Assembly: GCA_027046965.1 (NCBI GenBank)
Contig: JALTWR010000002.1
Span: 9,537 to 73,536 of the forward strand
Direction: 5' to 3'
DNA from: Candidatus Altimarinota bacterium
GTDB lineage: Bacteria; Patescibacteriota; Gracilibacteria; Absconditabacterales; Absconditicoccaceae
Length of the DNA stretch: 64,000 bases
This document shows, one piece after another, positions 1 through 64,000 of the stretch; position 1 is the first letter of the stretch, and each line of letters opens with the position of its first letter. The position numbers and the translations under genes were made by a program. The notes under the pieces are model-generated. The model saw only the letters and a program-made list of their open reading frames with translations, did no database searches and was not told the DNA's origin.

Positions 1-561
1 CATAGAGAACGCCTCCTTAAATTTCGTCTTTTTATCTATGATATTAAAGATCTTATCATTTGGAATTACTATCAAAGAATCTACAGCAGTCTTCATTTTT
101 TCTAATCCTTCAATAGCATTTTGAAGTCTTTGCCTACCCTCAAAACTAAACGGCTTTGTCACCACTCCTACAGTTAAAATCCCCATCTCTTTTGCCAATT
201 GAGAAATTACAGGAGCAGCTCAAGTACCAGTTCCTCATCCCATACCTGCCGTAATAAAGACCATATCAGTATCTTCCAAAACATTTTTAATATCCTCGAT
301 ACTTTCTTCCGCCGCTTTTCTTCCTATCTCCGGATTAGCTCATGCTCCTAATCAGTTAGTAAGATCTAATCCTATATTAATCTTAGTAGGAGCAAGAGAA
401 TTGGCCAAAGCCTGTGCATCCGTATTTATAGCAACAAATTCTACTCATTCCACTCCATCTTGAATCATCCTATTAATAGAATTAACTCATGCTCCTCCTA
501 CTCAAATAACCTTAATCCTAGCTCCAGGAACAAAATCCGGTGTAAACTCTTGTAAATTCAT
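1..561 (-). CDS. ftsZ: Cell division protein FtsZ (partial; C-terminal part lies beyond the window start)
   Basis: Code-25 translation from ATG 559-561 gives [32 protein letters not shown]... It contains the tubulin signature GMGGGTGTGAAP, with two Gly encoded by TGA (235-237 and 220-222). ftsA lies immediately upstream. Confidence 0.95.
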
Positions 562-578
562 TTTTATAAATTATTTAA

Positions 579-1769
579 TTAAAATAAATTCTTAAAAAGC
601 TTTTTGAAAAAGCCGCCTATACCGCTAAACAAACCAGACTTAAAAAAAGACACAAACCCTCCTGCCTCTCATCAATACTTTTGAGACCACATATAAACAC
701 CTATACTATTAACAAACATTATATCATTACTAATTTCCGACAATCACAATTGTTTATCTTTTCACTCAAATACTGCTAGCTTCAAAACAGATTTTGCAAA
801 ATCTATAATTCATTCAATTTTAGCACCTCAACCTATTAAAAATACTCCTCAAGGCAATCTACCTTCCTTATCTATTTCTCTTAGCTGTTCATTAATTTTT
901 TCAAATATTTCTTCATATCTTGCTTCTACTATCTCCCTAAGGAATTTCATATCCAAAGTATCTGAATCATCAATATTTTTTGATAAGTTACCTAATGTTG
1001 CCTTTTGCAACTTAATCTTTTCAGCTTCTTGTAAGTCAACTTGAAGACCTATTGATATATCTTTAGTGACTTCTTCAGCTCAAATCGGTATAACTCACCA
1101 TAGCAGTGGATATCACTCCTCCCATACTACAAAAGAAGTTTGATTATGTCCTATATCTACAAGTAGTGTTCCAAGATCCTTAGAATCAATATCCAGTGCT
1201 ACCTCAGAAGCAGCTAAAATATTGGGAACAATATCTATTACTTCTAGATCAACTTTTGCAAAAATATCAGCTATTATATCTTGCAAATTCTTTGGTAACA
1301 AAAATATATCAGCCACTAGCTCTAATCTTTTTGCTTCTAATCAAACTGGGTCCTTTACCTTCAACTCTTCATCAATTATCCAATATACTGGAACTATTTT
1401 AACAACATCATAATTTGGCCTATAAACAGTGTCCTCCACTATTCTGAGCAGATGTTGCACATTATCATTGTCTACCTGAGGCTTCAATATTCTTGTTAGT
1501 TCTTTGATTCTTTCAACTTTTAAATAAGGATGAGAAAGTCCAACAACAACTGAAGATATCACATCATCACCTATTTTTCTTTTTATCTTTTCAATTAACT
1601 GAGATAAAGAAGCTATCACCTCTCATCCATCCAAAATTTTTCCCTTACGTAATCATTTAGTTCTTTGAACTTCTCTAGCTATCACTCAAACCTTTCCCTC
1701 ATCTTCCAAGAAAACCGTTCACTTTAAAAAACCATTTCCCAGATCCACAACTAATTTTAGATCTCACAT
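579..1769 (-). CDS. ftsA: Cell division protein FtsA (397 codons)
   Basis: Track ORFs 1113..1316 and 1341..1619 are in one frame and joined through TGA. The N-terminus reads MGDLKLVVDLGNGFLKG. The C-terminal amphipathic helix reads ...GLFSGIGGFFKKLFKNLF, with stop TAA at 579-581. Classic ftsA-ftsZ order. Confidence 0.9.
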
Positions 1770-1869
1770 CTGAAAGGGATATAAAATAAAACTAATGTAG
1801 TTATAGAAATTCAAAAAAACTTTTCAAGAGACAACCTCAAAAAACTGATATATATTTTATATCAAAGAA

Positions 1870-3902: not shown

Positions 3903-6359
3903 TTAGTTTTCTCATCTTAGCTTAAATCCTTCTGCCCTTAGCCTATCTATCACCTGCCCAAAAAAATCTTCAAAAAATCCCTTTTTCATATCTTTAGGAG
4001 CTACTATTTTTAGGGTTAGCGTTATACTCTTTTTACCCTCAGGAACTCCTCTACCTACATAAATATCTTTAAGATAAATTTGCTGAATAGGTTCCATAGA
4101 TTGCAACAAATCTATTAACTTCTTCTCATCCTCTGTAAGATCAATTACAATACTCAAATCCTTGTAAAATATATTATCAGATAATGTAAGGATTTGCGGA
4201 TGTGCAGGAGTATTTAATATATCTACTATTTTTTGTATGTCAAGTTCAACAATACCTACTTGAGCTCAGTCCTCAAATCCTAGTTTAGAAAGGGTTATTG
4301 GAGACAATGTACCTAAAAATCCTATTTCAATGCCATTAACTGTGATCATACCAAATTGCTTAATATGAAAAAAGTTACTAAAGATATCACTTTTTTTGTA
4401 TCACACATCAGCATTATTAACCTCTAGCCTAGTTAGAATTCAGTCAATAAGCGATTTAAGATGCAAAATAGGGCTATCCTTAAAAGTTTCGCTATCTTTT
4501 TGATACCACAAATAAGCTATTTTACGATATTCTTTTTGATCTTGCCAAGCTCTACCAATATCCAAAATTCTAATTTGCTCAAAATATCTAAAGTTTTTTT
4601 GTAGTACCTCAATTAGTGATAAAAACAAAAATGGCCTTAAATATGTAGAAGTTGGATCCAAAGAATTTATTATCTTAATTACTTCTTCCAAATCTATATT
4701 AGCTATTTCCAACAGTTTTTTGGAAACCCAGGGATAAGTTTCAACCTGATCAAAATGAAAATCTCTAACGCCGATATCTACCAGCTCTCTTTCAAGCTCA
4801 AATACTTTATCAATAGGATGATATTTTATTTGCTGGGTAGGAAGATGGTTTGAAATCTTATCATATCACCATATTCTCCCTATCTCTTCTGCTAAATCAG
4901 GCAAGATATTAATATCCTTAAGAGATCTAAACACTGGTACTTTAACTGTACTCCCTTGTATTTCAAATCCTAGTGCTTCCAAAATTAAATCCATTTTGGG
5001 ATAAGGTATTCCTTCAGATACTCCAAAAAGGAGTTTGTTTATCTCTTCCCTAGAATAATCTACTACTTTTTCAGGATTAAAACCTTCTAGATGCCAGCTA
5101 ATACCATTTAATTCATAATTACCTAAATCTTTTTTATAAGTTTTTAATAAGTCCAAAAATAAAATTAAAGCATAAGCTGAAAAGTTTGGATTAGGGGATT
5201 TTTCAAACCTAACCTGTGCATCTGTCCTAAGCCCCAGTCTCACTCAAGTTCTTCTAATTTTAACAGGATCAAAATGGGCAATCTCCACTGCTATGTTTTT
5301 TGTCTGAGAAGTAATTTGGGAGGATTCTCCTCATATAATTCCGGCTAATGCTAAAATCTTTTTTTCATCTGCAATAACAATATCCTCCGAAGATAAAGTA
5401 TGTTTTTCTCCAGTAAGATCTACAAATTCTTCTCCATCTTTAGCATTTCTTACTATAACCTTTCCTTCAATTTTATCAGCATCAAAAAAATGCACCGGCT
5501 GAGAAGTCAAAAACATAAATAAATTTGAAAAGTCTACCCAATTATTTTTGGGAATAGCTTTAAGATCGTACAAAGATAATCTAGTCAAAAAGGACGACTT
5601 TTTTATGGTAACATCCTTGATATGAACCAAAATATAAGTTTTGGCATCTGGAGTTTTTACATCCACTCCAATAGGTCAACCAATAGAACTATGTAATAAT
5701 TCTATCAGATTAGTATCTCTAAATTGCGCAAAAATACCTGGTAATCCATTGAATTTAATTTTAGTAGAATCTAGCAAACGATATATTGCGTTTAACTCTA
5801 CTCCTATTCCTAGGTGTCCAAAAAGGTCTGGCCTATGTGTTAAGGTTTTGTTATCCACCTCAAATACAGTAGATTCTAACCAAGGATATTTTTTAACCAA
5901 AGGAACTCATATATCAGACTCATCAATATCGTCAAAATCCTCATCTAAAATCCAAATCCATTTTTGTTCTTCGTCTTCTGGGATACCTAACTCTGATTTT
6001 GAACAAATCATTCAATTAGAGCTGATCCCTCTCATAGGCTTTGATTGAATGGTGATATCTATCGCAGGCAAAAAAGTACCATCTACAGCCACGGGAACAA
6101 ATGCTCATTCTCTAAGGTTAGTAGCACCTGTAATTATTTGTAAACTTTCTCTCCCTATATTTATTTCACACACCCAAAGTTTATCTGCATTTGGATGCTT
6201 GGTTATTTTAATTACTTTGCCTATTATTACACCAGTAGGAATCTGACGAGTCTCATATCACTCTATCTCACAGCTTTTCAAAGTAAGAAGATCTTTAATA
6301 TTTTGAGGAGAATCATCCACACTTATAAATTTTTTTAAAAGTCAACTAGAAAAATACAT
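3903..6359 (-). CDS. pheT: Phenylalanine--tRNA ligase beta subunit
   Basis: Five same-frame track ORFs (3912..5900) plus an N-terminal tRNA-binding domain: MYFSSGLLKKF...KVIKITKHPNADKLWVCEINIG. B3_4/B5-like segments are present (MRLGLRTDAQVRFEKS) and the C-terminus is FDX-ACB-like. The track stop at 3912-3914 is TGA; the real TAA is at 3903-3905. Confidence 0.9.
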
Positions 6360-6429: not shown

Positions 6430-6431
6430 CT

Positions 6432-6680
6432 AAAAGGAAACCCCACCCGGGGTACCGAGCGGGGGTGATCCGTCGGCACCCAGGGCGGGGTGTTCCCCTT
6501 AATTATGAAAGTGACGTTCGTATTTTATCCACCTTCATAGTTAAGAAGATTACCCTGGGTGCCGACGGCTTGTCCAAGCGGCTCCTGAGGTCAGGATCAC
6601 CTACTTGGCAAGGAGGAATACCTCCATTTACGCCATCGGGAGGCTACCGCGTCCTGGTGGACCATCCCTTTAGCGTTGAT
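6432..6680 (-). ncRNA. Structured GC-rich non-coding RNA, class unresolved (strand tentative)
   Basis: A GC-rich island in an AT-rich genome.
- Perfect 16-bp helix: 6470-6485 CCGTCGGCACCCAGGG pairs with 6553-6568 CCCTGGGTGCCGACGG.
- A nested 16-bp helix, 6498-6513 with 6530-6545, has one wobble and one mismatch and a 16-nt loop.
- Side hairpins: GGGGTGTTCCCC (6487-6498) and GGAGGAATACCTCC (6612-6625).
- On the minus strand the element ends in a GC stem followed by TTTCCTTTT. Confidence 0.55.
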
Positions 6681-6802: not shown

Positions 6803-7723
6803 CTATCAACTTAATTTGTTTTTCAAAAATTCTACTATCGTAGGATCATTTTTATCTACTGTTAAACTGAGATGTGGATAAGATATAGAAATATTATGTT
6901 CATCCAGTGCCTTTTTAATAGCTTTGTTAACCCTAGATTGTATAATACCTACCGCAGCCTCAAAATTAGCAGGAGCAAAGTAAACCACTTTAAACACAAC
7001 TCAAAATTCGTTAAATGCTGATACTAACACAGCAATATTTTCTAGCTTTATTAGACCTGGAACTTTCCTAATAGCTTCCGATACTATTTTTTCAATTTTA
7101 TCAATATCTTCTAGGTGAGAGACACTAAAAGAAGAAGTAAGTCTAATAAATTCCTCCGAAGAAAAGGTTTTTAGAGGATTTGTGATCAAATCAATATTTG
7201 GAACAACCACTTTTCTCAAATCCAACAACTTCAAAACCGAATATCTCACGTTTATTTCCTCTATCCTTCCCATATATGAATAGTTGGGTGTTACAATCTC
7301 TATAATATCTCCTATTTTGAACTCTTTAGTGGTAAGTACCAAAAGTCATGCTACAAAATTTTCTAACAATTGCTTAAGGGCAAATCAAATACCTATAGAA
7401 AGACCTCATAAAAATATGGATAAATCTATTCCAACCAACGAAAAGGCTATCACAAAACCTATAGTAAATATAACATAATAAGCAATATTTCACACTAAAT
7501 CTGCCACCTTATAAGCGTGTTCATCCTTTCCCACAATATTAGATTTGATAGCTCTAGAAATCCTTTTAGATATTACAACTCATATCACATAAAAAACAAC
7601 AAGCACTACAATAGCTCCTCCAAACCCCAAGACATACTTAATCACCAAAGTTATATAGTCCTGAACAGCACTAGCTTGCTGTCCACCTCACACCTGTGCT
7701 TGGGCTAAAACCTTATTAAACAT
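6803..7723 (-). CDS. mscS: Mechanosensitive ion channel, MscS family (306 aa)
   Basis: Same-frame ORFs 6806..6997 and 7001..7342 plus a TGA-joined N-terminal TM region: MFNKVLAQAQVGGGQQ...GIDLSIFLGGLSIGIGFALKQLLENFVAGLLVLTTKEFKIGDIIE, which is the typical MscS core. The real stop is TAG at 6803-6805. Confidence 0.8.
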
Positions 7724-8563: not shown

Positions 8564-11500
8564 TTAAGTAGCTAAAGACTGTTCTCACTGAGATGGATAA
8601 TTAGCTCTATTTCTATTGTTACCTTGTTTCAATTTCTCTAATCTCTGGCTTATCCATTCATCATCGGTTCTTATTTCAATTCACAAAGCATCTTTTAAGA
8701 AATCAGCAATATTTCCCAACTTATCTCTCTTTAATCTATCCCTTAACAATCTTTTAAAAGCCTCTATAGCATCTTTAACCTCTCAAGGCAGTTTGTTATT
8801 ATATCTCCTGAGGAATACCCCCAAAGTAACTTTATCAAGAAGAGCGTCGCATTCTCAATTAAAAGTGCCGTTTTTTTCTAAACAATAATAAATTACAGCT
8901 CCTAGATCTTCTAGCCCATCAGATGTATATACCCTTTCTCCAAACCACAGAGCATACTTTTGTAATATAAACTTCATTGTCTCTTTTTCTTCTGTAGCTG
9001 GATCATTAACACCTTCAAATCATTTTTGCACACTCTTCCAAATATAGTGAGCTTGTCTTTCTTTATTAGGTGCAAAAGCACCTGTATGAGGATTTATAGC
9101 TAATCACCGCTGAACCATAACATAAGGTCCCTGAGCCCAAACATTCTCCAAAAATGGCGATTCTGGATCCATCAGATTTTCAAATATACTCTTTCATATT
9201 TCTGCCTGATTAGCACGCTGCAAGTAAGCCTCTATAGCACTCAATTCTTCTTCCTCCAGTGGCGAAAGCTCCCCTCTTTGTTTTCTTTCCTGATACCTAT
9301 ACCTTATTTTCAACAATGAACTTTCTTCATCCAAATTTGACAAAAGCAACACCCTTTTTAGCTGTTTCCCATATTCAAACCACCGATCTCGGTATTTACC
9401 TAGGATTTTATTGAAGTGTTTCGAAAAATTTTGAGGACTAATATTCTCCGGACTCCAATCAGGAGAAGCAAAACTACTAAAAGGCGGGATTCATATATTC
9501 TTAGCTATAGCATCCAAAAGCCTGACAAACCTAACACTACCCTCATAATCTATAATAAATCAATGAGCAGGAATACCAAAAGTCCTTCATAACTTCACAT
9601 AGTCGTCCAAAATATCACGAGAAAAATGACCAGACACCGGTAGACCAACTACCAAAGGAGCCAAATATGCACCTAAAGAGATATCTCCCTCTTCTTCTAT
9701 AGTTGCCTTGCTTAATAATGCCTTAAGTCCTCACAAAGCCTCCGCAACCTTCAAATCTCCAATATTTCATCTTACATCTTCAAATATTCCGGCAAAGGAT
9801 ACTGAAGAAATATTTTTGGAATATTCATCTACACTAGAGGAACTACGAGAAGCACCAAATGTCTTGATAAAGGCTTTAGGGAATTTACTACCAAATACAT
9901 TTTTAGATTTTTTATCCTTTTTAAGATTTTCAAAAATATAAACTGATTCCAAATCCCCTAAATCCTCAATTAATTTACGATTATCAGGATTGTTAGCTAA
10001 TTGTGACAGTTGCGAGTTATATTTTGCCTTAAAAGCCTCCCAATGTTTTTCTCATAATATTAATCTTACCCACACACCTTCTGAAGCATATTTGGCAAGT
10101 GCTTTTGGATACAAACTACCACCTCATCAACTTTCTGCTACAAACATTAAATATCCGGCTGCTTTCAGTTTTTCTCTGAGCGATTTTATTTCCCCTTTGG
10201 GATACTTCAAAAATAAATCTCTCTCTACTTTTCTTAGCGCTTCTCAACTGTCAACTCCTCAATCACGAGATAATAAATCTTTGTATTTGTTTATAACCCC
10301 CCAAATCTTGGAATCATACTCAGTAAAAGCATCAGCAAGTACATCTTGGAATGCTGAGCCCAAGGCTTTACCCATAAACTTAGAAAAAGCATTCTCTAAA
10401 GCCAAATAATGAAATTTTGTAGCATCAAATTCTTCCCTTTCTTTGATTTGAGCCATCCAGGCATCCCAAATGCTTTTCAATCATCCACCTATAGCTCATA
10501 TTGAAAACCACATTATTCCTCTCCCAGGCTTATGTATGCCTTGAGGAGTTTCTATTTTTTGAAATAACTCAAACTGTTCATATTGAGATTGAGTGTATCC
10601 TTCAAAACCGTTGTATCCTACCCACAATAAAAAGGAATCATAACTCATACTAATAGTAGTTGCCTTTTGTCCCCCAGCTGGAGTTATATGAACAAAATTA
10701 TTATCAAAGGAAACCTCAAATAATTGATAAAAGTCTTTGCCTCATTTTTTAGTAGGTCTTCCTACATATTTTACCTCTTCTCCTTGAAACTCTCCGCTCT
10801 TAAATGTTACCCTTCCTCTTTCCCATTTTGTCATTTTTTTCCACCAATCAGAAATCTTTTCACCTATTTTTTTATAATCATTTTTAACCTCCCACTCACT
10901 TAAATATCTACCACTTTCAACAAAATTGGGTAACTTTCTCATCTTAAATATACTAGAACCCATACTATCTTTGATATTATTAAGTCACAGAAATAATCAT
11001 CTAGAATCCACCACTACTTCTCTAGAAGCTCCATTCACAGTATCAGTAAAAGGAGTAATAATAACCCTATAAGAATTATCATCTATTTTGACAATATTAA
11101 TTTTAATCCAATCGAAAAAGCCTGCCTTTTCAAACAGAGAATTTCAACTTCATTTTGGTCTTCAAGCATAGTGAAACAATACAATCCCCTCTCAGTTTTC
11201 TAAATCTTCAAGTCTAGCATGAATCTCTCCAGAAAATTCAGATAAAATCCTTTCTGCTCTTTCTAAATAATTAGTGTCACTTTCCATATCCTGACTCTCA
11301 GTTTCATTATCTCATTGAGAAGGTTGTTGAGAATCCTCAGAAAATGGTTGCTCTTCCTCTTTACCATCTCCTCACTGAGATATATGCCCGTCTTGGGTGT
11401 TCAAAAGGAACTCCCCTAGCAAGTCTGTGCCCCTTACCCTACTTAAAAGATCTTGTATATCATTTATTGATATATTAGACTTAAAGCTAAGAAAAATAGC

Positions 11501-13306
11501 CATTAAAAACAGATCTATATCGTCTCAATAAAAAGAATCAAATCATTCTAAAGATATTTTTTTCTCCAATATATTAAGATTTTGTATCTTAGACCATTCA
11601 ATTTGTATTTCTTTATCATCAGTACTACTAGGATCCTTAAGTATCAAAACATAATCTATTGTTCAATTATCAGAAGGAAGCTCAACAACACCTCTCAAAA
11701 TATATTCCTTTCAATCTATTTCTAATTTATACCCATCCCGAAGTGTTACATCCTGTATTGCTCAATTTGATGGAAGAGAATAAACCTTTGTAGGGTAGAT
11801 TAATTTTAGTATATTTTCAAGTATATTGTCCAATCACAACTGTAATTCTACTCCTACCTTAGCATCTTTTATCGCCCATACTCAATTTTCCCTAAATTTT
11901 TCTTTGGATATACTTGTCGTATAAAGATGCCTTTTTTTTATTTCAACTTTTATATTCACGCCTGGTATTGTTATCTCTGTCACATTAGGATCATATATAT
12001 CCCTAACAAACTTATGCAATAGATCATATTGATTATCATCTATCCCAAATATCTCTTTAATTCTCTTTTCAAAATTAATATCATTAAACTTCCTATCTAT
12101 TACTTCCTTTAGCCGTAATTCCCATAATACCTCATCCTCCACGTTTCATCCTTCATAGTACCTTTGCAAAAAGTCAGCAAAGTCAGCATCTATGGAATGT
12201 ATATATTTAAGTTGTCGCTCAAAGTACTTTTTTTTGATACATACATAATTATTAGTTGGACAAGCTTTTATAACTTCCTCTCTTATATCTTCTACTATTT
12301 TTTTATTCCCAAGTCACACTAGGTCCCCAAAATAAGCTTCCCAGCTACCATTAAAGGGAACTAATATATCTTTACCATATCTTTTTTTCAAATGTTCAGA
12401 GATACTAGCCAATTTTGAACTGATCTGTGGAAGATCCAAACTACGTTGTAAATTTATCAAAAGCCCTTCTTCTGCCTCATTGATCTCCTCTATTATATCA
12501 GCAGCTGAAACAATACCCAATCTAACTACAAATTTAGATAACTCTTTTTTTATGATATTTTCTTGCTGCTTCAAAGCTTGACCAATAGAGTAATCTAGAC
12601 GATGGGATAAAATATCTGTTTTATTTAGAATATCCCCTATTGTAGGAAATCAGTCGAATATGGTATCTAAAACCTTTTTGCGTTGCTGAGGGGAAAGAGA
12701 GTTTAGAACATTCTTAAGATCATCTCAGATACCGTCAGGAATAGAGTCACTAAACCACCCTCTAATACCAGCTAAAGAGATAAAAAAATCTTCTATATAA
12801 CCATCCTTGAAATCTTTAGCTTTTAAACCTTCATAAAAAGAAAACACGCCTTTAATATTTTGGCATATCGCCTCTTTTTGATTAGGGTCCAAATCTGCCA
12901 AATTATTACAATTAGCTTCAATCTTTTCCCTAATAGAGTCCACAGTAGCCCAAAATAGTTTTTTACGAAGTTCTTGCTCTCCTACATCTTTAAATATTTC
13001 CTTCAACTTATTCAATGCTTCATAGGAAGTTCATATTTTAAAAAGCTTGAAGTTTTCAATAGAAAGTTTATCTACTCACAAAATTTTTTCCAATTCGGAT
13101 ACTATTTTTTTCAACTTATCTTCCTCCCTAGCATATTCCAAAAACCTTTTAAAACATCATTGAAAATCCCAATAACAATCATTTTTATAAAGCCACTCTT
13201 TGAATCATCAATATAGGCTTTCCAGTAGCTGTTTACTCACATCTAATCATCAATGCTGGGGATTGTCGCTTTTCTGTGATTCGAGATTTTTGGGTTGCTC
13301 GCTCAT
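8564..13306 (-). CDS. Giant hypothetical protein (1580 aa), no recognisable domain
   Basis: Six track ORFs (9767..9952, 10259..10480, 10742..10963, 11882..12142, 12314..12574, 12725..13015) all share one frame. I hand-translated 8564-9770, 12143-12316 and 13015-13306 and found only TGA interruptions. ATG at 13304-13306 (MSEQPKNLESQKSD...), TAA at 8564-8566. I saw no signal peptide or TM segment. Confidence 0.75.
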
Positions 13307-13889: not shown

Positions 13890-14990
13890 TTATTTGGCTT
13901 GATTTTGCAAATTTATTTTACGCAATTGTTGCCAAAGTTTCTCTTCTTGAGGAGTTAACCTCTTTGGAATCTTTATTTGTGGCAATATAAGAAGGTCTCA
14001 CCTGTGATTTCCTAAAATACCTTTTGCTCCAAATCATTTTCCAGGCACCTTAATGATTTCCCCTTCATTTAATCCTTTAGGAATTTTTATCCTTAATTTG
14101 CCTTCTGGATGCTCAACTAAGATCTCTCACCCCAATACTGCATCATATACACTAATTGGAATTTCTAGTAGTAAATCATCTCACCTTCTCTTGTAAGGCC
14201 CCCAGTCCACAACTTCAATTTTAACAAATAAATCTCCAGGGTCAACATCTTTTGCTGGCCAATGTCACATTCCTGGATATTTTATTACCTCTCCGCTTTT
14301 AATCCCTGCAGGAATTTTTACTAATAAAGTTTCATCCCTCATAACCCATCATTTCCCTCAGCATTTAGGACACGGTGTCCAATTGATATAACCCTTCCCT
14401 CAGCATTTAGGACAAGTTGTTTTAACTTGAATTCTGCCAAAAGGAGTTGCCTGAACCTGGATAACTTCTCATTTCCCTTCACATACAGGACAAATTTTAG
14501 ATTTGCTATCTGGAGCGACACCTGTTCATCCACACATATCACATGGAACCTTTCTCTGAAAAGATATTTCTCTAGAAGTCCCTTTATAAGCTTCTACAAA
14601 AGGAACTTGCAGTTGGATAACAATATCTTCACCTCTTTGTTTCTTGGTTTTGCTGGAGCCTATTCCTCCGAAAAAATCTCCAAATACATCAAAAATATTA
14701 TCAACATCAAATCAACCAAATCATCAAGGTCCACTGAATCAGCCAAAATCAAATCCTCCAAAACCTCATTTTTTAAAAGCATCATATTGGGCTCTTTTGG
14801 TATCATCACTTAAAACCCCATAAGCTTCATTTATCAATTTAAATTTCTCCTCTGCCTTTTTATCTCCCTTGTTTCTATCTGGATGGTATTTCATAGCTAA
14901 TTTTTTGTAGGCTTTTTTGATTTCCTCTTTAGATGCCTGAGGTGCTACCCCCAAAATTTCATAATAATCTTTATTAGGATCAAAATCCAT
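13890..14990 (-). CDS. dnaJ: Molecular chaperone DnaJ (366 aa)
   Basis: J-domain: DYYEILGV...[16 protein letters not shown]. It is followed by a G/F-rich region and four CxxCxGxG zinc-finger repeats (CDMCGGTG, CPVCEGKG, CPKCGGKG, CPKCGGND). Several of the conserved Gly are TGA, for example 14525-14527. Confidence 0.95.
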
Positions 14991-17436: not shown

Positions 17437-18447
17437 ATGTATATTAATGTGGCTCCGATGGATTGAATCACAGATACAGCTTATAGGTATATCATATACA
17501 AAATTTTTTCAAAATACAGAAGCCCTACAGATAAGACCATCTTAACAACAGAATTTATGAGTTCTGACGGATGGATTAAAAATCCTCACGGAGTTAAAAA
17601 ACATTTATTAACCATAAAAACTAAATCTAACATCCAAACTATAGCTCAAATTTTCTGAGGGAATCTAGAAAACTTGATTAAGACTGCTCAAGATATACAA
17701 AAAATGCAGATATTTAACTGAATTGAGTTAAACATTGGCTGTCCTTCTCCCAAAGTTATGAAATTGGGATGATGATCCGCACTAATGAAGGATCCCTCCA
17801 AGGCTGCTAGAATCATTATGCAATTAGCAAAAAGCATAAATTTACCATTTTCTATAAAAACTAGGACAGGATTTAACAGTACCACTAAAGGCCAACGATT
17901 CGACACTCTAGTTAATATAGCACCTTTTGTGAGTATGATCACGATACATTGAAGAACATACTCTCAGTGACATTCAGGAGACGTAGATCGAAATTTCATA
18001 TATTCTCTTAAAGAAAAAGTGAAAAATAAAGTTCTCATAATATGAAATTGAGGGATAACCTCTTATGATCAGGCGCTATCAAAAAAAGAAAATCTGGATT
18101 GAATTGCTATAGGAAGAGGGGCTATAGGAAATCCCTGGATAATCACCCCATATACGCCCTCTCCTGAAGAAAAAAAGGACACTATGATTAAACACTTTTA
18201 CCTAATGTTAAAAACCCAAGATTACTTTAAAACAACAATAAAGTCTCCTGCCAACAAGCCTTTTTTAAATCCTAGCTTAAAAAGTATTTTACACTCTCCA
18301 ATCTCACATGATAACAAAGCCACAATAGAATTTAGGAAACATTTTATGAGCTATATAAAAGGCCATCCTAAAGCTTCCCAATTAAGGGCAGAAATTTCAA
18401 AGATCTATGATTACAAAAAATTAATAAGTTTTTTAAGCAGCTTTTAA
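17437..18447 (+). CDS. dus: tRNA-dihydrouridine synthase
   Basis: Code-25 translation reads MYINVAPMDGITDTAYR...GIELNIGCPSPKVMKLGGGSALM...ITIHGRT...GNGGI...GIAIGRGAIGNPW. It is in frame with track ORF 18184..18447. Confidence 0.85.
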
Positions 18448-39524: not shown

Positions 39525-39525
39525 T

Positions 39526-40883: not shown

Positions 40884-40884
40884 A

Positions 40885-43154: not shown

Positions 43155-43155
43155 A

Positions 43156-44538: not shown

Positions 44539-44673
44539 CCATCAAAACAAATCTAAGCTAAACACCTATCAGTTTAACAATTTCCCTTTCAAAAAAAAGC
44601 AAAAAACATATACTTGATTTGGATGATTAAATTTATATAGTTTGCCTTGCAGTTTATTTTTTTAGTCAAAAAA

Positions 44674-45126: not shown

Positions 45127-45152
45127 GTTTAAATATATTTACTATACTTAAG

Positions 45153-45389
45153 ATGAAAAAAGGAATTCACCCAACTTATTACGAAGATGTTGAAGTAATT
45201 TGTATATGCGGTAACAAATTCACCGTAAATGCAGCTGTACCTGGACCTATCAAAGTTGAATCTTGTCCAGCATGCCATCCAGCATATACCTGAGAAAGGA
45301 CAACTACTGTAGTAAAAGGTAGGATGGAGAAGTTCTTAGAAAAACAAAAGAAAATCGAAGAACTTCAAAAGCAGCAAGGTAAAAAATAG
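45153..45389 (+). CDS. rpmE: 50S ribosomal protein L31
   Basis: MKKGIHPTYYEDVEVICICGNKF...ESCPACHPAYTGE. One TGA = Gly. Stop TAG at 45387-89. Confidence 0.9.
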
Positions 45390-45427
45390 GACAAAATTAA
45401 ACATTGTACTAACTTAAAACAAAGAGA

Positions 45428-46051
45428 ATGGGGCTCAAAAAAAAGCTTTTTAAAAAACATTTTGGGGACATTGAAGCTTTGATATCCCATTCTCCTTTTG
45501 TTTATATCAAAATTATCTTCTTCACTACACTTGTAGGTATAGGACTTATAATGACGTGGCTGTATGTCCAACAGACCTGAAACCTTTTTTATATAAAACC
45601 AGATATTGTAAAATTTGTAATACTAGCAATAGCAATCTTGGCGTATCTTAATTTTTTGATTAGGTTTTTTGACCTCTACCTGGATACAATCATACTTACT
45701 CCTGAGGGTATATATATCCATAGACGGTGAGGATTGCTTCAAAATTCCCAATCTATGATAAGTCGGGATTGATTAGAAAGCGTATCATATACCCAAAACT
45801 GATTGATAGAAAATCTCTTTAAATTTGGTGATATTTCCTTAATACATATAAACGGAGAAGAAAAGTTCAATAATGTCCCTAATCCTAGAGAAAATAGTCA
45901 GACCATATTGCTTACCAAAAAAAAATATACTTCTCCTCTCTCCTGAGAACAGAGCCAACAAAAAATGGAAATATTGATAGAAGCTCTGGGAGAAGTAGTC
46001 AAGGAATATCTGGATTCTAATCAAAGATCTGATCCAGAATCAGAAATTTAG
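45428..46051 (+). CDS. Membrane protein with a bacterial PH (YdbS/YdbT-like) domain (207 aa)
   Basis: Two TM helices (IKIIFFTTLVGIGLIMTWLY, VKFVILAIAILAYLNFLI). These are followed by ...LDTIILTPEGIYIHRRGGLL...FGDISL, which is typical of bPH_2. Confidence 0.5.
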
Positions 46052-46070: not shown

Positions 46071-47471
<1,401 letters not shown>

Positions 47472-49855: not shown

Positions 49856-50479
49856 CTAATATGCAACAATTTTGCCTATTATTTGTTTTTGATCAACTAA
49901 TCAGAATTTTCTTGAATCTTTACTATCAGCTTTATTATCTCATAACAAAAGATACATACCATCAGGAATTTTACCCCCAAAATTTCTTAACTGTATTTGC
50001 AAAAGTTTAATATCACTAGGCATATAAAGATATCCTCAAGGATAGATATATTTTGAGTTTTCTGGCTTACCATTGATAAAAAGCTTTCAACCACTAAAAG
50101 TTATAGTATCCCCTGGAATTCAAACAACCCTCTTGATTAAGGGAGTATCTATGGTTTTGAATTTAACCACCACTATATCATATCTTTTTATCGGTTTTTC
50201 ATCTTCAAATATTACACCTGTAACTATATCTCAAGGTTTCATCAAAGGATACATAGACATACCATTGATAACAAAACGCTTGAGCTCCCCTTTAACAACC
50301 TCATCCTCTGAAGGCTGCATTTTTTCCTCTTGCTGTCAGCTCAAAACCTTCTCAACTGATAAATCAGAGCTTTGAGAAGGTTTAGCCATATAACCTTGCC
50401 TATAAAAAACAAAACCTACCAAGACACCAACAAATACCACAAAAAACACTGTCCAAGTTCATAAAGTTAACTTTTTCAT
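49856..50479 (-). CDS. lepB: Signal peptidase I (207 aa)
   Basis: Code-25 translation shows a TM segment, then INGMSMYPLMKPGD (catalytic Ser box), LIKRVVGIPGD and LLLGDNKADSKDSR. Confidence 0.85.
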
Positions 50480-50525: not shown

Positions 50526-53500
50526 TTACTTTCAAGTCTGGGATGGAGAAGAAGTCGAAGCTTGAGAAATTATCTCTTTAATTTCAGGTGTAGTCGTTTC
50601 ATCATCCAAGATTCAAATTCTAGCAGCTATCTCGGCTTCTACAAACTCTCTTTTTCTACCATATTTTTTGGCACTATATTCCTTTAGGATTGGTGGCACT
50701 TTGGGGTTTTTGTAATCTGTAGACCAAATAGTATCCAGAGAAAATACCCTTGAAGTGGTATTGTCCACATTTAGCTTGATATAAGCCTTGTAATTTGAAA
50801 TCCCTATAATATCAGCAGGTGAAAGCACCGGAGCATATTCTTTTTCTAATACTTCCGCATCCGGAGCACCTACTTTAAAAGACATCATTGTTCCCACATT
50901 ACCAAATACTGCATCTTTTACTGAAGATCTTTTGTTTTCTCATATGTTATACCCTGCACTCGATTCAAGCTGAGCAATATATTGATGGGCCATTATCAGA
51001 GCAAGTTTGTATTTTCTAGCTTCAGATAAGATATCAGCAAAAGTATCAGTAACAAAGTTTTGGAACTCATCAACATAAAGATAAAAATCACGTCTTTGAT
51101 CTTCAGGAATATTTGCTCTAGACATAGCAGCATTGTAAATTTGAGTCACAAGTATCATACCAAGCAATTGAGCATTTAACTCTCCAATCTTTCATTTTGA
51201 CAGATTAACAAGCAAAATTTTGCCTTCATCCATAACCTCTCTAAACCTAAATGCGGATTTAGTTTGGCCAATAATATTTCTAATTAACCTATTGGTGATA
51301 AATGATACAAATTTAGAAGTAAAATAAGGTATTATCTCTTCCTTTTCCCTATCTCCCATAGCTGCATAGGTTCTCTCCCAAAAGTTCCTGACTACAGGAT
51401 TTTTTACTTTCCTCACCTTGTATTCCCTAAAAATCTCATCAGTGAAAAGTCTAGGGACATCAATCAAGGTAGCTCATTCCTCTAGATCTTCCAACAAAGT
51501 CAAAGAACCATACTTAAAATATTCCTGAATCCTAGGACCAAATATCTCAGGGCCAAACATTTTAAGGAATATGGCTGTAGCATCATTTACTACTCTATCT
51601 GCCTGAGATATATCATCAATTTCATAAAGGTTTAACCCCATTGGACGTTCATCATTGCCTGCATCAAAATAGATTATATCTCTGGCTCTATTTTTAGGAA
51701 CATAATTTAAGATATCCTCCACTAGATCCCCATGAGGATCTATCACAGCTAGTCCATTACCAGACCAAATATCCTGCCTGGCCAAAAAGGAAATAAAAGC
51801 CGACTTACCAGTACCAGATTTTCAGATAATGTAATGATGCCTGGTCCTGTCTTTCTTTTTAAAATATATAGGAGTAAATCTGTTTCTATAGACATTTATA
51901 CCTAGCAGGAGACCATCATTAAATGTTTTCAATGCCTTGACCCTACGTTTACCTCAATCTTGTGTTTTTAGGTCTTTTTCTCCAACCGCCCGATGCTTGC
52001 TTTTTTCAAAAATCTTATGAATAATACCATCTTTGTAAGCCTCTGCTATCTTACCATCTATTAGATATTTTGGATTCTCATCCTTAAGAACTGGCACCTT
52101 ATCAGGTGGAGGTAATTGCTTGTAATCCATCCATCTGATTATAGGAGAACGGTTATATACCGCATCAGGAAAATGAAATAAAGAAGTTAATTCGTTAACT
52201 GTAAAAATATTCCTTTTGAAAAAGAACCATACCAAGTGAAATCTAGCTGCCATTTTCCACAAAGGTTTAAAAAAGAATCCAAACATATCAGCTGCCCATT
52301 CTGGTTGATCCAATTCATTGTTGTATTCGTCTTTAAACACGGTGAATGCAGAAAGCACATTACGAATATTTTCCTGAGGTCTTTCTTTAGCTGGAGATGA
52401 GGAAATCAAAAGTAACCCAGTATTAAAAGCTGGCTTTCAAGCCTCTTCAGCTATTACATTAAGAGCATCTTCTTCTGCTTTGGGCATACGGATAAATGGA
52501 TCACCTTGATGAGCTCCAGGATGAAATCTTTTGATAAGTTCTTCAGATGGCCCCATCACTAAATAATCCAATATATACTTGGGAAAAAATAATATCTTTT
52601 TTCGCAATGGCCGTCTTTTGAGAGCTCTTTTATCTTTTTTGTACAAAGCTTCTGCAAATTTTTTGGCACGAGCATTAAACCTATCTCCTTGAGGTTTTGT
52701 AATTAACATCATAGAAAATGTATCTTCTCTTCTCACCTTCCCAATACTATCTAAAATATTGTTCAAAGGGTCGTCCTCCAATTGTTTAAAAACCCTTATT
52801 GGGAATACAGGATCTTTTACGGGTTGTAAAGGGATCACATCAGTATATTTGTGCTTGAATATTTTTGGTTTAGAAATAGTTTCAATGGAAGCATCTGGAT
52901 ATTGAGCTGCTATAGCTGCCTCTACAACTTTTTTATATTCTGGATAAGTAGCGACCACAAAATCTACTTTACCTTGATCATAATGAAGTAAAAAAGATAC
53001 CTTAGCTTTTTTAAAAAGTAAGTCCATCAATCAATCTATAACAGACCTTTCACCTAATTTGTGTAAAGCTCTATACACCTGTGACATACGAGCGATTTTT
53101 TCTTTCATATCTTTGGCTATATCTTTTTCTCTTTCACGGTCTTGTTTAGTATCACTTCTAGGTTGGATAATTCTTAAGTAAATTAATCTATGTTCATTGA
53201 ACACATCATATAAAAACCTAAACAAAAAACGAACAATCAAAAATATAAAAATAGCAAGCAGTGAAAGACCACCTATAGTCAAAAAGTTATGAAATCCTGC
53301 AGCAAGTTGTGCTCATATTGTCTCATAAAAAGACGGTTGAGATGTAGCTGCCTGATGAGTATATCCAGGTCTAACCATTTGTCCATATTGGGCAATAAGT
53401 TGGGTGGCTTTTGTCTCTCCTCCTATTAAATCAAGACATTGGGAATAGTTGTGCTGCCAGGCAGTAGTTAATATCTCTTTTGTATCCAAACTTTTAACCT

Positions 53501-53558
53501 GATCTCCCAGCCCTTGGATAGTTTGTTTCAATACCAACTTACAATCAGCCTTGTTCAT
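50526..53558 (-). CDS. VirD4/TraG-like type IV secretion coupling-type ATPase (FtsK/HerA superfamily, 1010 aa)
   Basis: Eight same-frame track ORFs (50613..53558) are joined only by TGA. One TM (LSLLAIFIFLIVRFLF). Walker A is HHYIIGKSGTGKSAF, followed by AVIDPHGDL. Walker B-like YLYVDEFQNF, then IMAHQYIAQL. Stop TAA at 50526-28. Confidence 0.8.
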
Positions 53559-53618: not shown

Positions 53619-54059
53619 TTATTTATATTTCAAAGCCTGCTGCCTTGCATATTTATCAGCCAGCTCATTTAGTTTATCCCCTGAGTGTCATTTTATCCAA
53701 GAAATTTCAATATTTTTACTCTTCAAAGCCTTCTCTATTTTTTGCCACAATGGCCAGTAAGCCACTGGAGATCAATTAGCTTTTTTACCAAGTTTCTTTT
53801 TCCAGTTTGGAAGTCGCTTAGTTGCTCAATTTACAATATAGCTTGAATCACTATATATGTATGTTTTGGTGTCTTTAGGTGCTCTGTTAACTCATTGCCA
53901 TAGTGCAACAAGTTCCATTTCTGAGTTTGTAGCCTTGGACTTCCCACCACTAATAACTTCCAAAACTTGATCTCAATCTGAAACAACTACCGCCCATCAT
54001 CAAGGTCAAGGATTCCCCAAACTGGATCCATCAATATATATTTTAAGAGGCTTTTTCAT
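53619..54059 (-). CDS. rnhA: Ribonuclease HI (146 aa)
   Basis: IYIDGSSLGNPGPGGWAVV...TNSEMELVAL...IYSDSSYIVNG...WIKGHSGDKLNELADKYA contains the DEDD catalytic residues. Several Gly are TGA. Confidence 0.85.
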
Positions 54060-55428: not shown

Positions 55429-58299
<2,871 letters not shown>

Positions 58300-59680: not shown

Positions 59681-60826
59681 TTAAAATTTCAAGTAAATTT
59701 TAAATATGCCATCATCAAAAGAAATATCCATGGTCCAGCCTAATAATTCAACCGCTTTTTTAACAAGATAAAGCCCTATTCCCATTCAAGATTTGTTTCC
59801 TTCTTTGTAAAATTTTTGCGTAAGTTTGGAAATATTTTTTATTTTTTGTGACTTATTTTGGATAAGTATCCCATCTTTATCTACATAAATACTCGCTCCT
59901 CCTTTTGAATATTTTTTAATATTAGAAAAAAGATTAAACAATACTGTCTTTAATAAGTCTTCATTGGCAGGTATTTTAGGCTTGCCTTCACAATTTATGT
60001 TTACTTTTATTTGTTGCTTGGTTATCATAGATTTTATAAAATTGCAAATATCTATAGATTCTTTTCCAATTTTTAGATTTCACCTCTCCAATATCATAAG
60101 TCTACCAAACATATCAATAACACTTTTTATATGAAAAATCTCTTTTTTAAATTCTTCAAAATCCTCCTTATTTATTTTTCACTGAGCATACAATATTTCC
60201 AATGAGGACAGAAGGTTCATTAACGGAGTTTTGATCTCATGGGAAAGATATCTATTAAAAGAAGAAATAGCATCAAACTGATTATTTATAGATTGAAACA
60301 AAAAATAGAGCTCATCATCCTTTGATATCCCCAATTTGTTCATATCAATTAGTTGCCCATTTTTTAAAAATCTAATAGCCTCAAAAAGTTTACTATATAT
60401 GCTAGCCAAGAACCAACGCCCTAAAGGATATGATACTATTAAATAAAACAATACTATATAAAAGGATAGTTTAACCAATAAAAGATGAAGCTCAAAAAAA
60501 TCTGTAATATCAAACGCTATATTGTTGTCTATAAGGAAATATTTATCCGATGATTTATAAACCCCTTTTTTAATTTGTTGCATAGAATCTAGACAATACT
60601 TTTGTTCATACATTTCAAAACATTCTCCGTCGAGGAATTGCCAACTCCTATAAGGTCATCATTTACCCTTAAGATTTTGATAGGTGGTTTTTAATTTTTG
60701 CACCTTGCCATAATATTGAGACAGTCATAGCTGCCAAAAGCCATAATTGACAATAGTTAATCAAAGTGCCAAAATTAATAGTGAAAACAGTTGAAACTTA
60801 ATAATTACTTTGCTAGCTGTACTCAT
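59681..60826 (-). CDS. Sensor histidine kinase (381 aa)
   Basis: N-terminal TM segments. H-box is RYLSHEIKTPL. The HATPase_c region reads NLFSNIKKYS...GMGIGLYLVK (ORFs 60179..60613 and 59786..60028 in frame, then a TGA read-through). Confidence 0.8.
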
Positions 60827-60839
60827 TTTGTTGAAAGAT

Positions 60840-61508
60840 TTACTTTAGTAATATTTTATATCATACCCCCTTAATTGTTTCTATGGCTCATTCACCCAGT
60901 ATTTTTCTCAGGTTGGCCATATATACATCTAATTTTTGATCAGACTTCTGATCCCATATGGCATCTTCTCCCCATACATATTCAATTAAATCTGTCCTAT
61001 TGGCTATTTTCCCAGCTTGAGAAAGCATATATTTTAATATAGCTGATTGAGTCTTATTTAGAGAGAATGCTCAATGGTCACTAATAACCTTATTTTGTGT
61101 CAAATCCAAAGTTCTACCGTTGGCTAATACAATATTGTCCCTGACCCCATATCTGCTTAAAATAGCCTTAACTCTAGCTACCAACTCGGCCATTTCAAAC
61201 GGTTTCGTAATATAATCATCACCTCCACTATCAAATCATGAAAGTTTGTCTTCTAGCTCCCCTTTGGCAGTTAAAAAAATTATAGGTAAAAGTAAATCTC
61301 TTTTTTTTATCTGTCTTGCTAAATGATAACTTTCTCAATCAGGTAACATCACATCTAATATCACAAAATCATATTTATTTTTTTCCAATTTTTTTTCAGC
61401 TTCTTGTAATGTAGCAGCTGTATCTACTGTCCAATTTTCTGAAAATTGCAAAAATCTTTTAATATTAGTAGCTATTTTTTTATCATCTTCCACCAGCAGA
61501 ATTTTCAT
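60840..61508 (-). CDS. OmpR-family response regulator (222 aa)
   Basis: MKILLVEDDKKI...FVILDVMLPDG (receiver Asp) ...LTAKG...GGDDYITKPF. Winged-helix region: LSQAGKIANRTDLIEYVW...LDVYMANLRKIL. It is invisible in the track because TGA splits it into pieces shorter than 60 aa. Confidence 0.9.
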
Positions 61509-61551
61509 GGTTACACTTAGAATGATAGATTTGCAACTATTACCAGCTTAA

Positions 61552-64000
61552 TTAATAAGAAAATTTCACTCCAAATCAAATATTACCAACATATTCTCAA
61601 GCAGGAATGCTACCGTCAACTTTTGCTCATATCCTTATAAGATAAGTATAGACATTTAAAAGTCCATCACCGTTTATAGTTCCTCAACCTGTATATATAG
61701 TAGTTCATCCTGTGAGAAGTGGTTCCAATATTCCATCATAAGGAGTAATATCATAACCCCATCACGTTAGAGAGTTTCGTTCGTTAATCTGATATACATC
61801 AAACACTAAATTGGATTGCTTAAAAATATCTAATTCAAAAGGAGATCCCACGCTCTTAATAGTAATAATCACATCTGTAGAATAAGTTATATTACCGCTT
61901 ATTAGATCCCCAATAAATATCTCTCCAGTACTGATCTCAAAACTAGGAGAATCTATATAATAAATTGCTCCTGTGGATGAACTGTTGCCTAACAAATCTG
62001 AAATTGAAAAGTTAAACCTATATTTTCCATAAGATAGATTATTCATAGTATAAGAAGCTCAAGTGGTGGTTATATTTGATCAAGATATACCAGTTAAACT
62101 AATATCAGTCCATACTCAACCGGTAGCATCCCATTTTTCCAAAGTCAATGTTGCTGATCATATATCAATTCAAGCTCAGGTATCAATGTAAGATATTTTT
62201 ATATCCAAATTTCATATTGGCAAAAGTTGTCCTGAAAGTGGAAATATGGAAGTTATTGTAGGTGGAGTAACATCTACCGGAGACCAACGATTTATAAAAT
62301 AATTAAATATATTTGAAACATCAATATCTGTTAATTTTTGATTGAAACTAATGATTTCTCATATCCATCCATTGAAATTGTAATTATTCCCTCCTACAGC
62401 TGTTCAATCTTGAAGTATCATTCAATCTTTCATCCAACCAAAACCAACATCTCAACCGTGTGGATACTGAGGATACAAAGGAGATAGTGTTCATATTAAA
62501 TTCCCGTTTAGCCAAGCCTTCCAAGTGTTTTGATTAACATCTACATTTGTGGCATCTTGAGATAAGACTACATAATATGTTTCAAAAGGTTGGATTGGGC
62601 CTAAATCTATATATTTAATCTGTTCTCAAGCTGGCCATTCAATTGTATTCCATATTCAAGCCCATAAATGACCTCCTTGTATAGTAAGTCAATATCATCT
62701 AGCTCATCATCATTGTTCATATATTACTTGTTGTGAGTTGATATCTCATGAGGTTTTGAAAACAAATGCAAAAGATTTTTGGTCATATACATTGGTAGTA
62801 GTATTTATTTTCCGGTGATCTGATACTGCTAGCCAATCATCTACTCAATCAAAATAAATTGCAGGATGGGTATTTATTCAATTTTGATAATATGTAGGTT
62901 GACTAGCTGTAGTAGATTGGGTGGCTGTATGAACAAAGTATATATCAGCAACTTGGCTCAAAAGTGAACCATCTGCTGGTTCATTGGCAGCACTATAATC
63001 TCAATCTATGTTTTGTCAATCTCGATGAAAAATAGGAAAAGATATTGCCCAAGGATTTGCAAAAAATACAACTTCTTTGGTTGACCTATGTCAAGATAAA
63101 TTTGCTATAGAAAAGGTTATTTTGTACAATCACTCTTCATCAAAATTTATTTGATAATCAGCTCAAGTGCTAGTAATATTGGTTCAAACAATGTTTGTAG
63201 TTTTGTCTATATTCCAATATACTCATCATCGTTTTTGAATTTTGATATCAGCGGATGTAGTATCTATTCAAATATTATCTGAATAAGAAAAACTAATATT
63301 TTGAGTTCATGTAAATACTCAAGTCCGATTTGCAAAAGGAGCAGTAATCTCTGGATAATTTATATAATCTAGTCACCATTTAATTTTCCAATAATCATTT
63401 AAATCTTGGATATATCAACTAGACAATACACTATTCCACATTACAAATTCACCTATCCATCATTTGAAATTATCTCAATTTGCTAGTCAAATATCTGCAT
63501 TTGTTTCTAGATCAATAGTGGCATTATTTATTCCTCATAGTCAAATTTTTCCTGGATGATAATTTAATTCTTCAATAAAGTTTTTAGTAGAAACTAATTT
63601 TCCATTAAAATATACAGCTTGCCAGTTTTGTTGTAAATCAGTATTTGTACCGTTATGAACTATCAAAATAGAATAAGTAGTATTTGGATTTATAGGTCAT
63701 AGATCTATTCATTGTCGTTTTTCTTCTTTCATCCAATTGGATTCAGACCAGCCTCAAGCATAAAGTCTTCAGTTTTTTATCATTATTCCCCATCAATTAA
63801 CTGATCATCATTCTTCATATATAAATTGTCTTGTAGTAATATCATCAGATGTTTTGAAAACTATTCAGATAGCTCTGGTTGGATATCAAGCTGTATTTGT
63901 ATTTATATCTGTAGAGTTTGCTATTTCATATCGTTTTGTTCAGTCAAAATACAAAGCTGGCTTTCAATTGATAGCTCAGGTTTGATAAATAGCTCCATTT
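61552..64000 (-). CDS. Very large surface protein with repeated LamG (Laminin_G_3-like) and Ig-like modules (partial; N-terminus beyond the window end)
   Basis: The code-25 frame is open from the window end to TAA at 61552-54. LamG-type motifs: IYFDGVDDWLAVSD...SFAFVFKTSGD...YEQGGGARGYGLTIQGGHLWAGIW...FNGWIGEIISFNQKL. A second copy carries ...FKGWIGEFVMWNSVL. Only one standard-code ORF of 60 aa or more survives (61762..62046). Confidence 0.8.

Follow-up and report, generated by a model that had tools for sequence, protein, structure and literature searches.

The subject of this report is the genetic code of a 64,000-nt stretch of contig JALTWR010000002.1 from Candidatus Altimarinota bacterium (assembly GCA_027046965.1), called the window throughout, whose genes carry TGA codons in frame and CGA and CGG codons at several conserved tryptophan positions. 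Conserved alignment columns, profile scores and codon exchanges between relatives point to a three-codon variant, in which UGA would be read as glycine and both CGA and CGG as tryptophan, the stops would be UAA and UAG only, and arginine would be encoded by AGA, AGG, CGU and CGC. We put the probability of this reading at about 85%. Its best description is NCBI translation table 25 plus CGA and CGG as tryptophan.

Reading frames and gene set

The window has a GC content of 33.4% (0.334). Read with the standard code, it contains no open reading frame (ORF) of at least 300 aa anywhere in its 64,000 nt, and ORFs of at least 100 aa, summed over six frames, amount to only 41% of its length. Treating TGA as a sense codon yields 26 ORFs of at least 300 aa, the longest with 1596 codons from stop to stop; no such gain in long ORFs is obtained when TAG or TAA is made sense instead. 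A preliminary description of the window had attributed the fragmentation to stop-codon reassignment and called the standard-code ORF track an artefact, and these counts bear it out. Its fragment counts are exact, with eight minus-strand fragments in 50526..53558 and six in 8564..13306 of the standard-code ORF list, and the four genes that it considered hidden under the standard code (60840..61508, pilD, lepB and 28007..30946) indeed lack a correct-strand ORF of at least 60 aa. The segment as a whole and the genes needed here are:

1..64000, not strand-specific: chromosomal segment with TGA as sense, 49 genes, 512 TGA, stops TAA and TAG only
50526..53558, minus strand: VirD4/TraG-like type IV coupling ATPase, 1010 aa, eight standard-code fragments
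60840..61508, minus strand: OmpR-type response regulator, five TGA, invisible in the standard code
59681..60826: histidine kinase, downstream of the response regulator at 60840..61508
42321..43154, minus strand: pilD, prepilin peptidase with A24 N-terminal domain, TGG TGG at 42867-42872, CGA at 42807-42809
49856..50479, minus strand: lepB, signal peptidase I (Peptidase_S26), eight TGA
28007..30946, minus strand: Cys-rich protein with a signal-peptide-like N-terminus, 979 aa, 34 TGA, weak DUF4215 match

Non-overlapping genes were called with TAA and TAG as sole stops and then corrected by hand: four antisense artefacts were taken out, and ftsZ, a radical-SAM methylthiotransferase, an RRM protein and ribosomal protein L31 were put in. 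The curated set covers 96.2% of the window (20,522 codons), and its in-frame TGA codons make up 2.5% of codons, beside 272 TGG. In-frame TAA and TAG are absent from these genes by construction; off frame, TAA is counted 692 and 903 times and TAG 742 and 427 times, and TGA is equally common in frame (512) and off frame (410 and 914). Of the 47 complete genes, 36 have TAA and 11 have TAG as their stop codon, in agreement with the earlier claim that no other stop is used, and alignments with homologs extend to the C-termini, past the last TGA.

Genes were identified with Pfam while TGA was masked as X, and AtpD was identified from its PDB matches. The Pfam matches include genes for cell division, transcription and chaperones (FtsA, RpoD, DnaJ, FtsK, GrpE), for translation and RNA metabolism (PheT, Dus, ThiI, Tmk, LepA, LeuRS, RNase H), for envelope and secretion (Mur ligase, prepilin peptidase, YidC, signal peptidase I, Lgt) and for signalling (the histidine kinase and the OmpR-type regulator), in addition to the VirD4-like ATPase.

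Pseudogenes also look like fragmented ORFs, and in-frame TGA could in principle stem from gene decay, from sequencing or assembly error or from selenocysteine recoding. Here, frames are broken by TGA only, with TAA and TAG abundant off frame; the 512 sites lie in a sequence of 96% coding density, where homologs align at full length across 11-24 TGA codons; and an independent assembly with 98% identity has these TGA codons too. Moreover, the TGA sites align with Gly and not with Cys or Sec, and a frequency of 2.5% of codons is unlike the rare Cys/Sec sites of selenocysteine recoding. Any of these origins is exceedingly improbable.

In-frame TGA codons fall on glycine positions

The assignment of glycine to TGA draws on the following genes:

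46071..47471, plus strand: atpD (F1 beta), 11 TGA, Walker A motif GLF-GG-AGVGKT with TGA at 46527-46532
35460..37430, minus strand: lepA (EF4), 24 TGA
55429..58299, minus strand: leuS, 23 TGA
1..561, minus strand: 5′ part of ftsZ, running off the window, TGA in GVGG-G and in the tubulin signature GMG-G-GTGT-G
13890..14990, minus strand: dnaJ, 15 TGA, five of them within four CxxCxGxG repeats
26775..27467, minus strand: tmk, TGA in the P-loop GVDGT-G-KAT at 27432-27434
43156..44538, minus strand: Mur ligase (MurF-like), TGA in GVT-G-SVGKT at 44440-44442

The preliminary description had located TGA codons at invariant glycines of all of these proteins but LeuRS. The positions hold for AtpD (TGATGA at 46527-46532), FtsZ (235-237 and 220-222) and LepA (37383-37385), and the TGA codons of the Tmk and MurF motifs were likewise found. 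A TGA is also present in the DnaJ CxxCxGxG motif, where it occupies 14526-14528, one base away from the 14525-14527 originally given.

Aligned with chain D of 2qe7 (2qe7_D, the Caldalkalibacillus/Bacillus beta subunit), AtpD has 9 of its 11 TGA codons on Gly, including both Walker A glycines, and the others on Asn and Ala. In LepA, 16 of the 21 TGA codons that align with Thermus thermophilus EF4 are on Gly, the rest on His, Arg, Gln, Asn and Ala, and none on Trp. LeuRS was aligned with genes from 80 genomes, of which the 36 without in-frame TGA served as standard-code reference. Its TGA columns contain 70.8% Gly (723 cells from the 36 standard-code sequences), compared with 73.6% Gly in GGN columns and a Gly background of 6.8%; Gly is the majority residue in 16 of these 23 columns and Trp in none. 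Overall, the tabulation of residues in the TGA columns of AtpD, LepA and LeuRS, which had been proposed as a check, shows enrichment for Gly and not a single Trp-majority column. TGG remains a Trp codon, as had been stated, with 272 uses and 74.9% Trp in the LeuRS TGG columns.

Profile scores and codon exchanges give the same picture. Across 10 proteins with 17 Pfam domains, every domain scores higher with TGA as Gly than with TGA as Trp, and the differences add up to ~209 bits. In comparison with the related locus L093 (~80% protein identity), the codons that TGA is exchanged with are GGN in 21 cases, others in two and TGG in none. With TGA included, the Gly share of codons rises from 5.1% (GGN alone) to 7.5%, and TGA becomes the most used single Gly codon (32.7% of all Gly codons). 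Conserved columns, Pfam scores and exchanges therefore identify TGA as a glycine codon, as had been proposed, and on this comparative evidence code 4, pseudogenes and selenocysteine are excluded.

Code 4, in which UGA encodes Trp, deserves mention as the other code in which UGA is sense. It is used by Mycoplasmatales, Entomoplasmatales and several insect endosymbionts, which resemble the present case in having low-GC, reduced genomes; the window combines low GC with in-frame TGA, and a public pilD entry is stored with TGA translated as Trp. Unlike in code 4, the UGA columns of the window are Gly and never Trp; TGG and TGA together would make Trp an implausible 3.8% of residues, and both the Pfam total and the exchanges (21 with GGN, 0 with TGG) contradict it, leaving this explanation with next to no probability.

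Two further proteins are rich in TGA. The poly-Gly linkers of the Cys-rich protein at 28007..30946 mix TGA and GGN codons, for example RRG-g-G-gg-G-g-G-gg-G. The reading frame at 61552..63999 (minus strand), which runs off the window, encodes an 815-aa fragment with 58 TGA codons (7% of its codons) and no Pfam match.

CGA and CGG codons at tryptophan positions

CGA and CGG (together CGR) are rare in the window, with 31 and 23 occurrences (54 together), compared with 65 CGT, 17 CGC, 404 AGA and 233 AGG; AGA and AGG make up 637 of the 773 codons of the standard Arg box (82%). Per 10,000 codons, this corresponds to 15 CGA and 11 CGG, beside 133 TGG, and CGR would be ~17% of Trp codons if read as Trp. 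Low-GC relatives have 0-13 CGA or CGG per 10,000 codons.

In a codon-by-codon tabulation of LeuRS, CGA and CGG are the only codons with data that depart from their standard residue. In particular, the CGG at aa 93 (58021-58023), in the motif HPMG-W-DAFGLP, occupies a column with Trp in 32 and Phe in 4 of 36 sequences; CGG is common to the two closest relatives, and all others have TGG. The CGA at aa 135 (57895-57897) is in a column with Trp in 36 of 36 sequences, and the CGG at aa 632 (56404-56406) is in a column with Tyr in 31 of 35. In the same protein, all 22 AGA and AGG codons on conserved columns fall on Arg or Lys.

Three other genes contain informative CGA codons:

53619..54059, minus strand: rnhA (RNase HI), eight TGA of which 6-7 on Gly, CGA at 53814-53816
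17437..18447, plus strand: dus (tRNA dihydrouridine synthase), CGA at 17989-17991
37547..38083, plus strand: SixA-like histidine phosphatase, four CGA in all, CGA at 37589-37591 in RHAKSS-x

Opposite the RNase HI codon (aa 82), the E. coli enzyme has the Trp of GITQWIHNWKK, and the Dus codon (aa 185) aligns with Trp in Thermotoga maritima (1vhn) and E. coli DusC and with Tyr in DusB. For the histidine phosphatase, the residues aligned with aa 15 in four chains are Trp (2rfl), Trp (yeast phosphoglycerate mutase), Tyr and Ala, and those aligned with a second CGA (aa 68) are Trp, Leu, Leu and Ser. In LepA, the CGA at aa 536 (35823-35825) aligns with Tyr.

Pfam scores rise in most domains when CGR is translated as Trp in place of Arg. 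The gains in bits are +9.9 for tRNA-synt_1, +6.3 for EFG_C, +6.1 for Dus, +4.8 for RNase_H, +3.1 for His_Phos_1, +0.9 for ThiI_fer and +0.6 for UPF0004; the losses are -1.6 for Mur_ligase_M, -0.6 for LGT and -0.4 for Anticodon_1. The net gain over Arg is about +29 bits for Trp and only about +21 for Tyr, which places Trp ~8 bits ahead of Tyr. Full-length NCBIfam models also favour Trp by a net +13, with RnhA +7.1, LeuS +5.7, DusB +4.6 and LepA +1.9. Among five further proteins scanned with Pfam, only GT2 gives a signal (+1.9 bits for Trp); the CGR sites of the others, a putative PrgI-like protein, the 45428..46051 protein, the VirD4-like protein and a VWA protein, lie outside matched domains.

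The preliminary description had labelled the whole window as genetic code 25. The part of this label that concerns TGA stands; table 25 also keeps CGA and CGG as Arg, and this part does not fit the 54 codons that behave as Trp. Its underlying observation is thus confirmed and its interpretation partly supported, being right on the main point and incomplete in the label.

A changed meaning of CGT or CGC is not claimed. Two LeuRS CGT sites are odd, one on an Asn column and the other where relatives have His; the other LeuRS CGT sites are on Arg/Lys columns. AGG is unusually frequent in the window (113 per 10,000 codons, against 6-38 in low-GC relatives) and in LeuRS is still found on Arg/Lys columns (8 Arg, 1 Lys). 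The fragment at 61552..63999 is internally duplicated; by visual alignment, a CGA in the first repeat (FDg-TK-CGA-YEIA) is matched by a TGG in the second (FDg-VDD-W-LAVS).

Codon exchanges with close relatives

Part of the window has a nearly identical counterpart in public data:

39422..45734, not strand-specific: near-identical stretch, 98.1% nucleotide identity without gaps to ENA ERZ23491667 scaffold_8701

Part of this stretch is also present in the NCBI metagenome-assembled genome (MAG) GCA_027022765.1; the 98%-identical contigs of these two records are L088/L089. Comparison with the 98%-identical strain gives 107 differing codons. Among these, the TGG TGG of the window's pilD corresponds to CGG CGA in the relative, and one TGA of the window corresponds to GGT; otherwise, the window's TGA codons are kept. 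In comparison with L093, TGG and CGR are exchanged five times and CGR and AGR (AGA or AGG) never. The 98%-identical strain and L093 together thus provide 2 + 5 = 7 TGG-CGR exchanges, four of them TGG-CGG; TGG-CGA exchanges are seen with both L088 and L093. If CGR were read as Arg, exchanges with AGR would be expected, given that AGA and AGG form 82% of the Arg box; their total absence is then difficult to explain.

The pilD alignment adds to this. The column of the CGA at 42807-42809 is Trp in several relatives, and two Absconditabacterales MAGs (L091 and L092) swap TGG and CGR at three further columns. The L091 pilD (10001..10870, NCBI GCA_041663325.1, Ca. Absconditabacterales) has seven CGA, one CGG and two TGG codons. 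CGR may be the main Trp codon in that genome, like in the genome that Shulgina & Eddy describe, in the passage concerned, as being at an 'advanced stage'.

Tryptophan, arginine or both

Several points weigh against reading CGR as Trp. Informative CGR sites are few, and CGG in particular relies on one Trp and one Tyr column in LeuRS and four TGG exchanges. The NCBIfam models for SixA, MtaB and MurF each score ~2 bits lower with Trp. The CGG at aa 401 of MurF is CAG in the 98%-identical strain and CAA in L093, a change more typical of Arg, and some CGR contexts look basic, for example KRALKR-CGG-PL-CGA-KK (aa 316-319) of the VirD4-like protein. Further, three TGG/CGA sites of the window's pilD (aa 30, 77 and 116) are occupied by true Arg codons (CGT, CGG and CGA) in the standard-code homolog L090 (10001..10864; 56% GC, no TGA), and other family members have Lys or Arg there. 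In these three columns, an ancestral Arg seems to have given way to Trp through the change in codon meaning; ambiguous decoding would also have room there. No tRNA gene was found in the 64-kb window or in the loci of close relatives, and tRNA(UCA), tRNA(UCG) and tRNA(CCG) were each absent from the ~35 related loci scanned. No release-factor gene is among the window genes scanned against Pfam, although 64 kb cannot show that prfB is absent genome-wide. All codon meanings given here are drawn from sequence comparison, that is, from conserved columns, profile scores and exchanges.

Plain table 25, with CGA and CGG as Arg, is the accepted code of the clade, and it would explain the coincidences with Trp as real Trp-to-Arg substitutions, which are one nucleotide away from TGG. 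The three NCBIfam models, the MurF exchange with CAG and CAA, the basic-looking contexts and the Arg residues of the standard-code homolog at the same pilD columns speak for it. It would have to place Arg at the LeuRS sites where 36 of 36 and 32 of 36 sequences have Trp, and at the Trp site of RNase HI. It also runs counter to the Pfam net of +29 bits and to seven TGG-CGR against zero CGR-AGR exchanges in close relatives despite 82% AGA/AGG, and it would require a double change from TGG TGG to CGG CGA at hydrophobic columns of a membrane protein, PilD, between strains of 98% nucleotide identity. On balance, we consider it unlikely.

The mixed signal, with strong Trp sites beside sites that fit Arg equally well or better, could also come from codons in transition. 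CGA and CGG might be ambiguous or mid-transition, with ancestral Arg sites having turned wholesale into Trp in some proteins and others still being Arg, a situation that we regard as quite unlikely; if it were true, a sense codon would have two meanings, a natural case that is rare in bacteria. The related formulation, that decoding as Arg and Trp is ambiguous or that CGA and CGG differ from each other, appears very unlikely. In its favour, Shulgina & Eddy note, in the passages concerned, that ambiguity can be excluded by experiment only and that the history of CGG in Gracilibacteria is complicated (PMC8629427). Against it, both codons swap with TGG in close relatives and never with AGR, and a rare residue like Trp can be expected to score slightly below zero where conservation is lacking. 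The three-codon variant, with CGA and CGG both as Trp, accommodates these data best.

Lineage and comparison with known codes

By its best matches, the window is assigned to the Absconditabacteria/Gracilibacteria clade (Patescibacteria/CPR), in line with the SR1/Absconditabacteria-Gracilibacteria placement suggested earlier; best matches and homolog names, rather than a tree, define this lineage. The best LeuRS loci (55-59% identity, 10-45 in-frame TGA) are in MAGs labelled Ca. Gracilibacteria or Ca. Altimarinus, the latter assigned by NCBI to the phylum Ca. Altimarinota, and named PilD homologs are from Ca. Absconditabacteria, Absconditabacterales and Absconditicoccaceae. In the LeuRS scan of genome contigs, relatives reach at most 59% identity and share little synteny with the window; by this level of identity, the species of origin is not among the GTDB representatives. 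Three leuS genes with ~51-53% identity have no in-frame TGA (L005, labelled Peribacteria; L006 and L018, labelled Patescibacteria).

Other labels agree less well with the presence of in-frame TGA. Two leuS genes labelled 'Peribacteria' (L008 and L011), with ~40% GC, have eight and four in-frame TGA codons, respectively, and one labelled 'Gracilibacteria STA_21' (L010) has one; if the labels are not simply imprecise, the recoding of UGA is less uniform than these taxon names imply. In a metagenome scan, the LytR-like protein of the window matched only six short contigs, with ~40% identity, and its TGA-free Ndk had an exact match in only one 1.1-kb Logan contig. The accession numbers of the near-identical MAG were not found mentioned in the literature.

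The reading of UGA as Gly in SR1/Absconditabacteria and Gracilibacteria is NCBI table 25 (Campbell 2013, Rinke 2013, as cited in PMC8629427). The window shares with it UGA as Gly, UAA and UAG as sole stops, UGG as Trp, low GC and the lineage itself, and differs in that table 25 keeps CGA and CGG as Arg, where the window has them Trp-like. According to the passages concerned in Shulgina & Eddy 2021 (eLife 10:e71402; PMC8629427), which used Codetta, Absconditabacteria are predicted also to read CGA and CGG as Trp, and CGG as Trp may extend to some Gracilibacteria. The same source describes for Absconditabacteria a GC content of 0.26-0.38, reduced use of CGN codons, Arg encoded predominantly by AGA, and tRNA(UCG) and tRNA(CCG) with Trp-like identity (G73, no A20). 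The window agrees with this code in all three codon meanings, in a GC content (0.334) within that range, in depressed CGN and in dominant AGA. It differs in having 11 CGG per 10,000 codons, compared with fewer than 7 in all but one of their species, for which codons were counted in aligned Pfam domains only. Moreover, the evidence in the passages cited includes tRNAs, and the window adds TGG-CGR exchanges between near-identical strains.

Published work on the clade suggests how such a code could operate. UGA would be decoded by tRNA-Gly(UCA) after loss of release factor 2 (RF2), and CGA and CGG by tRNA(UCG) and tRNA(CCG) carrying Trp identity elements. The change would have followed the near-extinction of the GC-rich CGA and CGG codons under AT mutation pressure (codon capture). 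Sites with Arg in standard-code homologs and Trp in the window are the trace expected from codon capture followed by reassignment.

Consequences for annotation

The choice of translation table has large effects on the predicted proteins. With table 11, nearly every gene of the window or the genome breaks into fragments, table 4 places Trp at 512 Gly positions, and table 25 places Arg at ~54 probable Trp positions (~17% of Trp), some of them catalytic or structural and including invariants of LeuRS and RNase HI. None of these tables gives the combination proposed here, so a custom translation is needed. The effect is already visible in the public entry P0003, a near-identical pilD (L088/L089) whose stored translation has Trp for TGA, as in code 4, and Arg for CGA and CGG. 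Its apparent identity to the window's protein is only 94%, because the database translated TGA as Trp, and it contains ~10 false Trp and 4 probable false Arg residues.

Both code changes are already described for the clade, and the 98%-identical MAG fragment is already public; current understanding is not overturned, and the weight of the result lies in correct annotation, for which it is important. Further, the window would be an independent example of the CGA/CGG to Trp reassignment, which so far is computation-only, and the synonymous-looking TGG-CGR exchanges at 98% identity are a type of evidence absent from the passages cited in Shulgina & Eddy 2021.

Other features of the window

Picking the longest ORFs overlooks three real genes:

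27594..27884, minus strand: RRM-domain RNA-binding protein, 96 aa, no TGA
45153..45389, plus strand: ribosomal protein L31, 78 aa
25542..26768, minus strand: MtaB-like radical-SAM methylthiotransferase, 408 aa, overlapping the annotated thiI start

The true start of thiI is probably the Met at aa 33, with the CGG codon immediately after it.

A scan of the window against Rfam gave no match, and SECIS elements as such were not searched for. A GC-rich island at 6440..6670 (minus strand), located between the MscS-like gene at 6803..7723 and pheT at 3903..6359, reaches up to 74% GC per 50 nt and folds with a minimum free energy of -125.8 kcal/mol (z = -8.3) and a 17-bp stem. Its end, ~80 nt upstream of pheT, is formed by a terminator-like hairpin and a U run. 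The island matches no Rfam family (best E = 0.89), is not called as a tRNA or tmRNA and does not recur in any of the fetched loci; it may be an unclassified small RNA or leader.

A T4S pilin (PF18895; 13455..13844, minus strand) and the VirD4/TraG-like ATPase (50526..53558, minus strand) are found among three giant minus-strand proteins at 8564..13306, 19012..22107 and 32067..35345, which have 1580, 1031 and 1092 aa, respectively, and no Pfam match. Judging from this gene content, the pilin, the coupling ATPase and the giant proteins may form a cell-surface or transfer apparatus.

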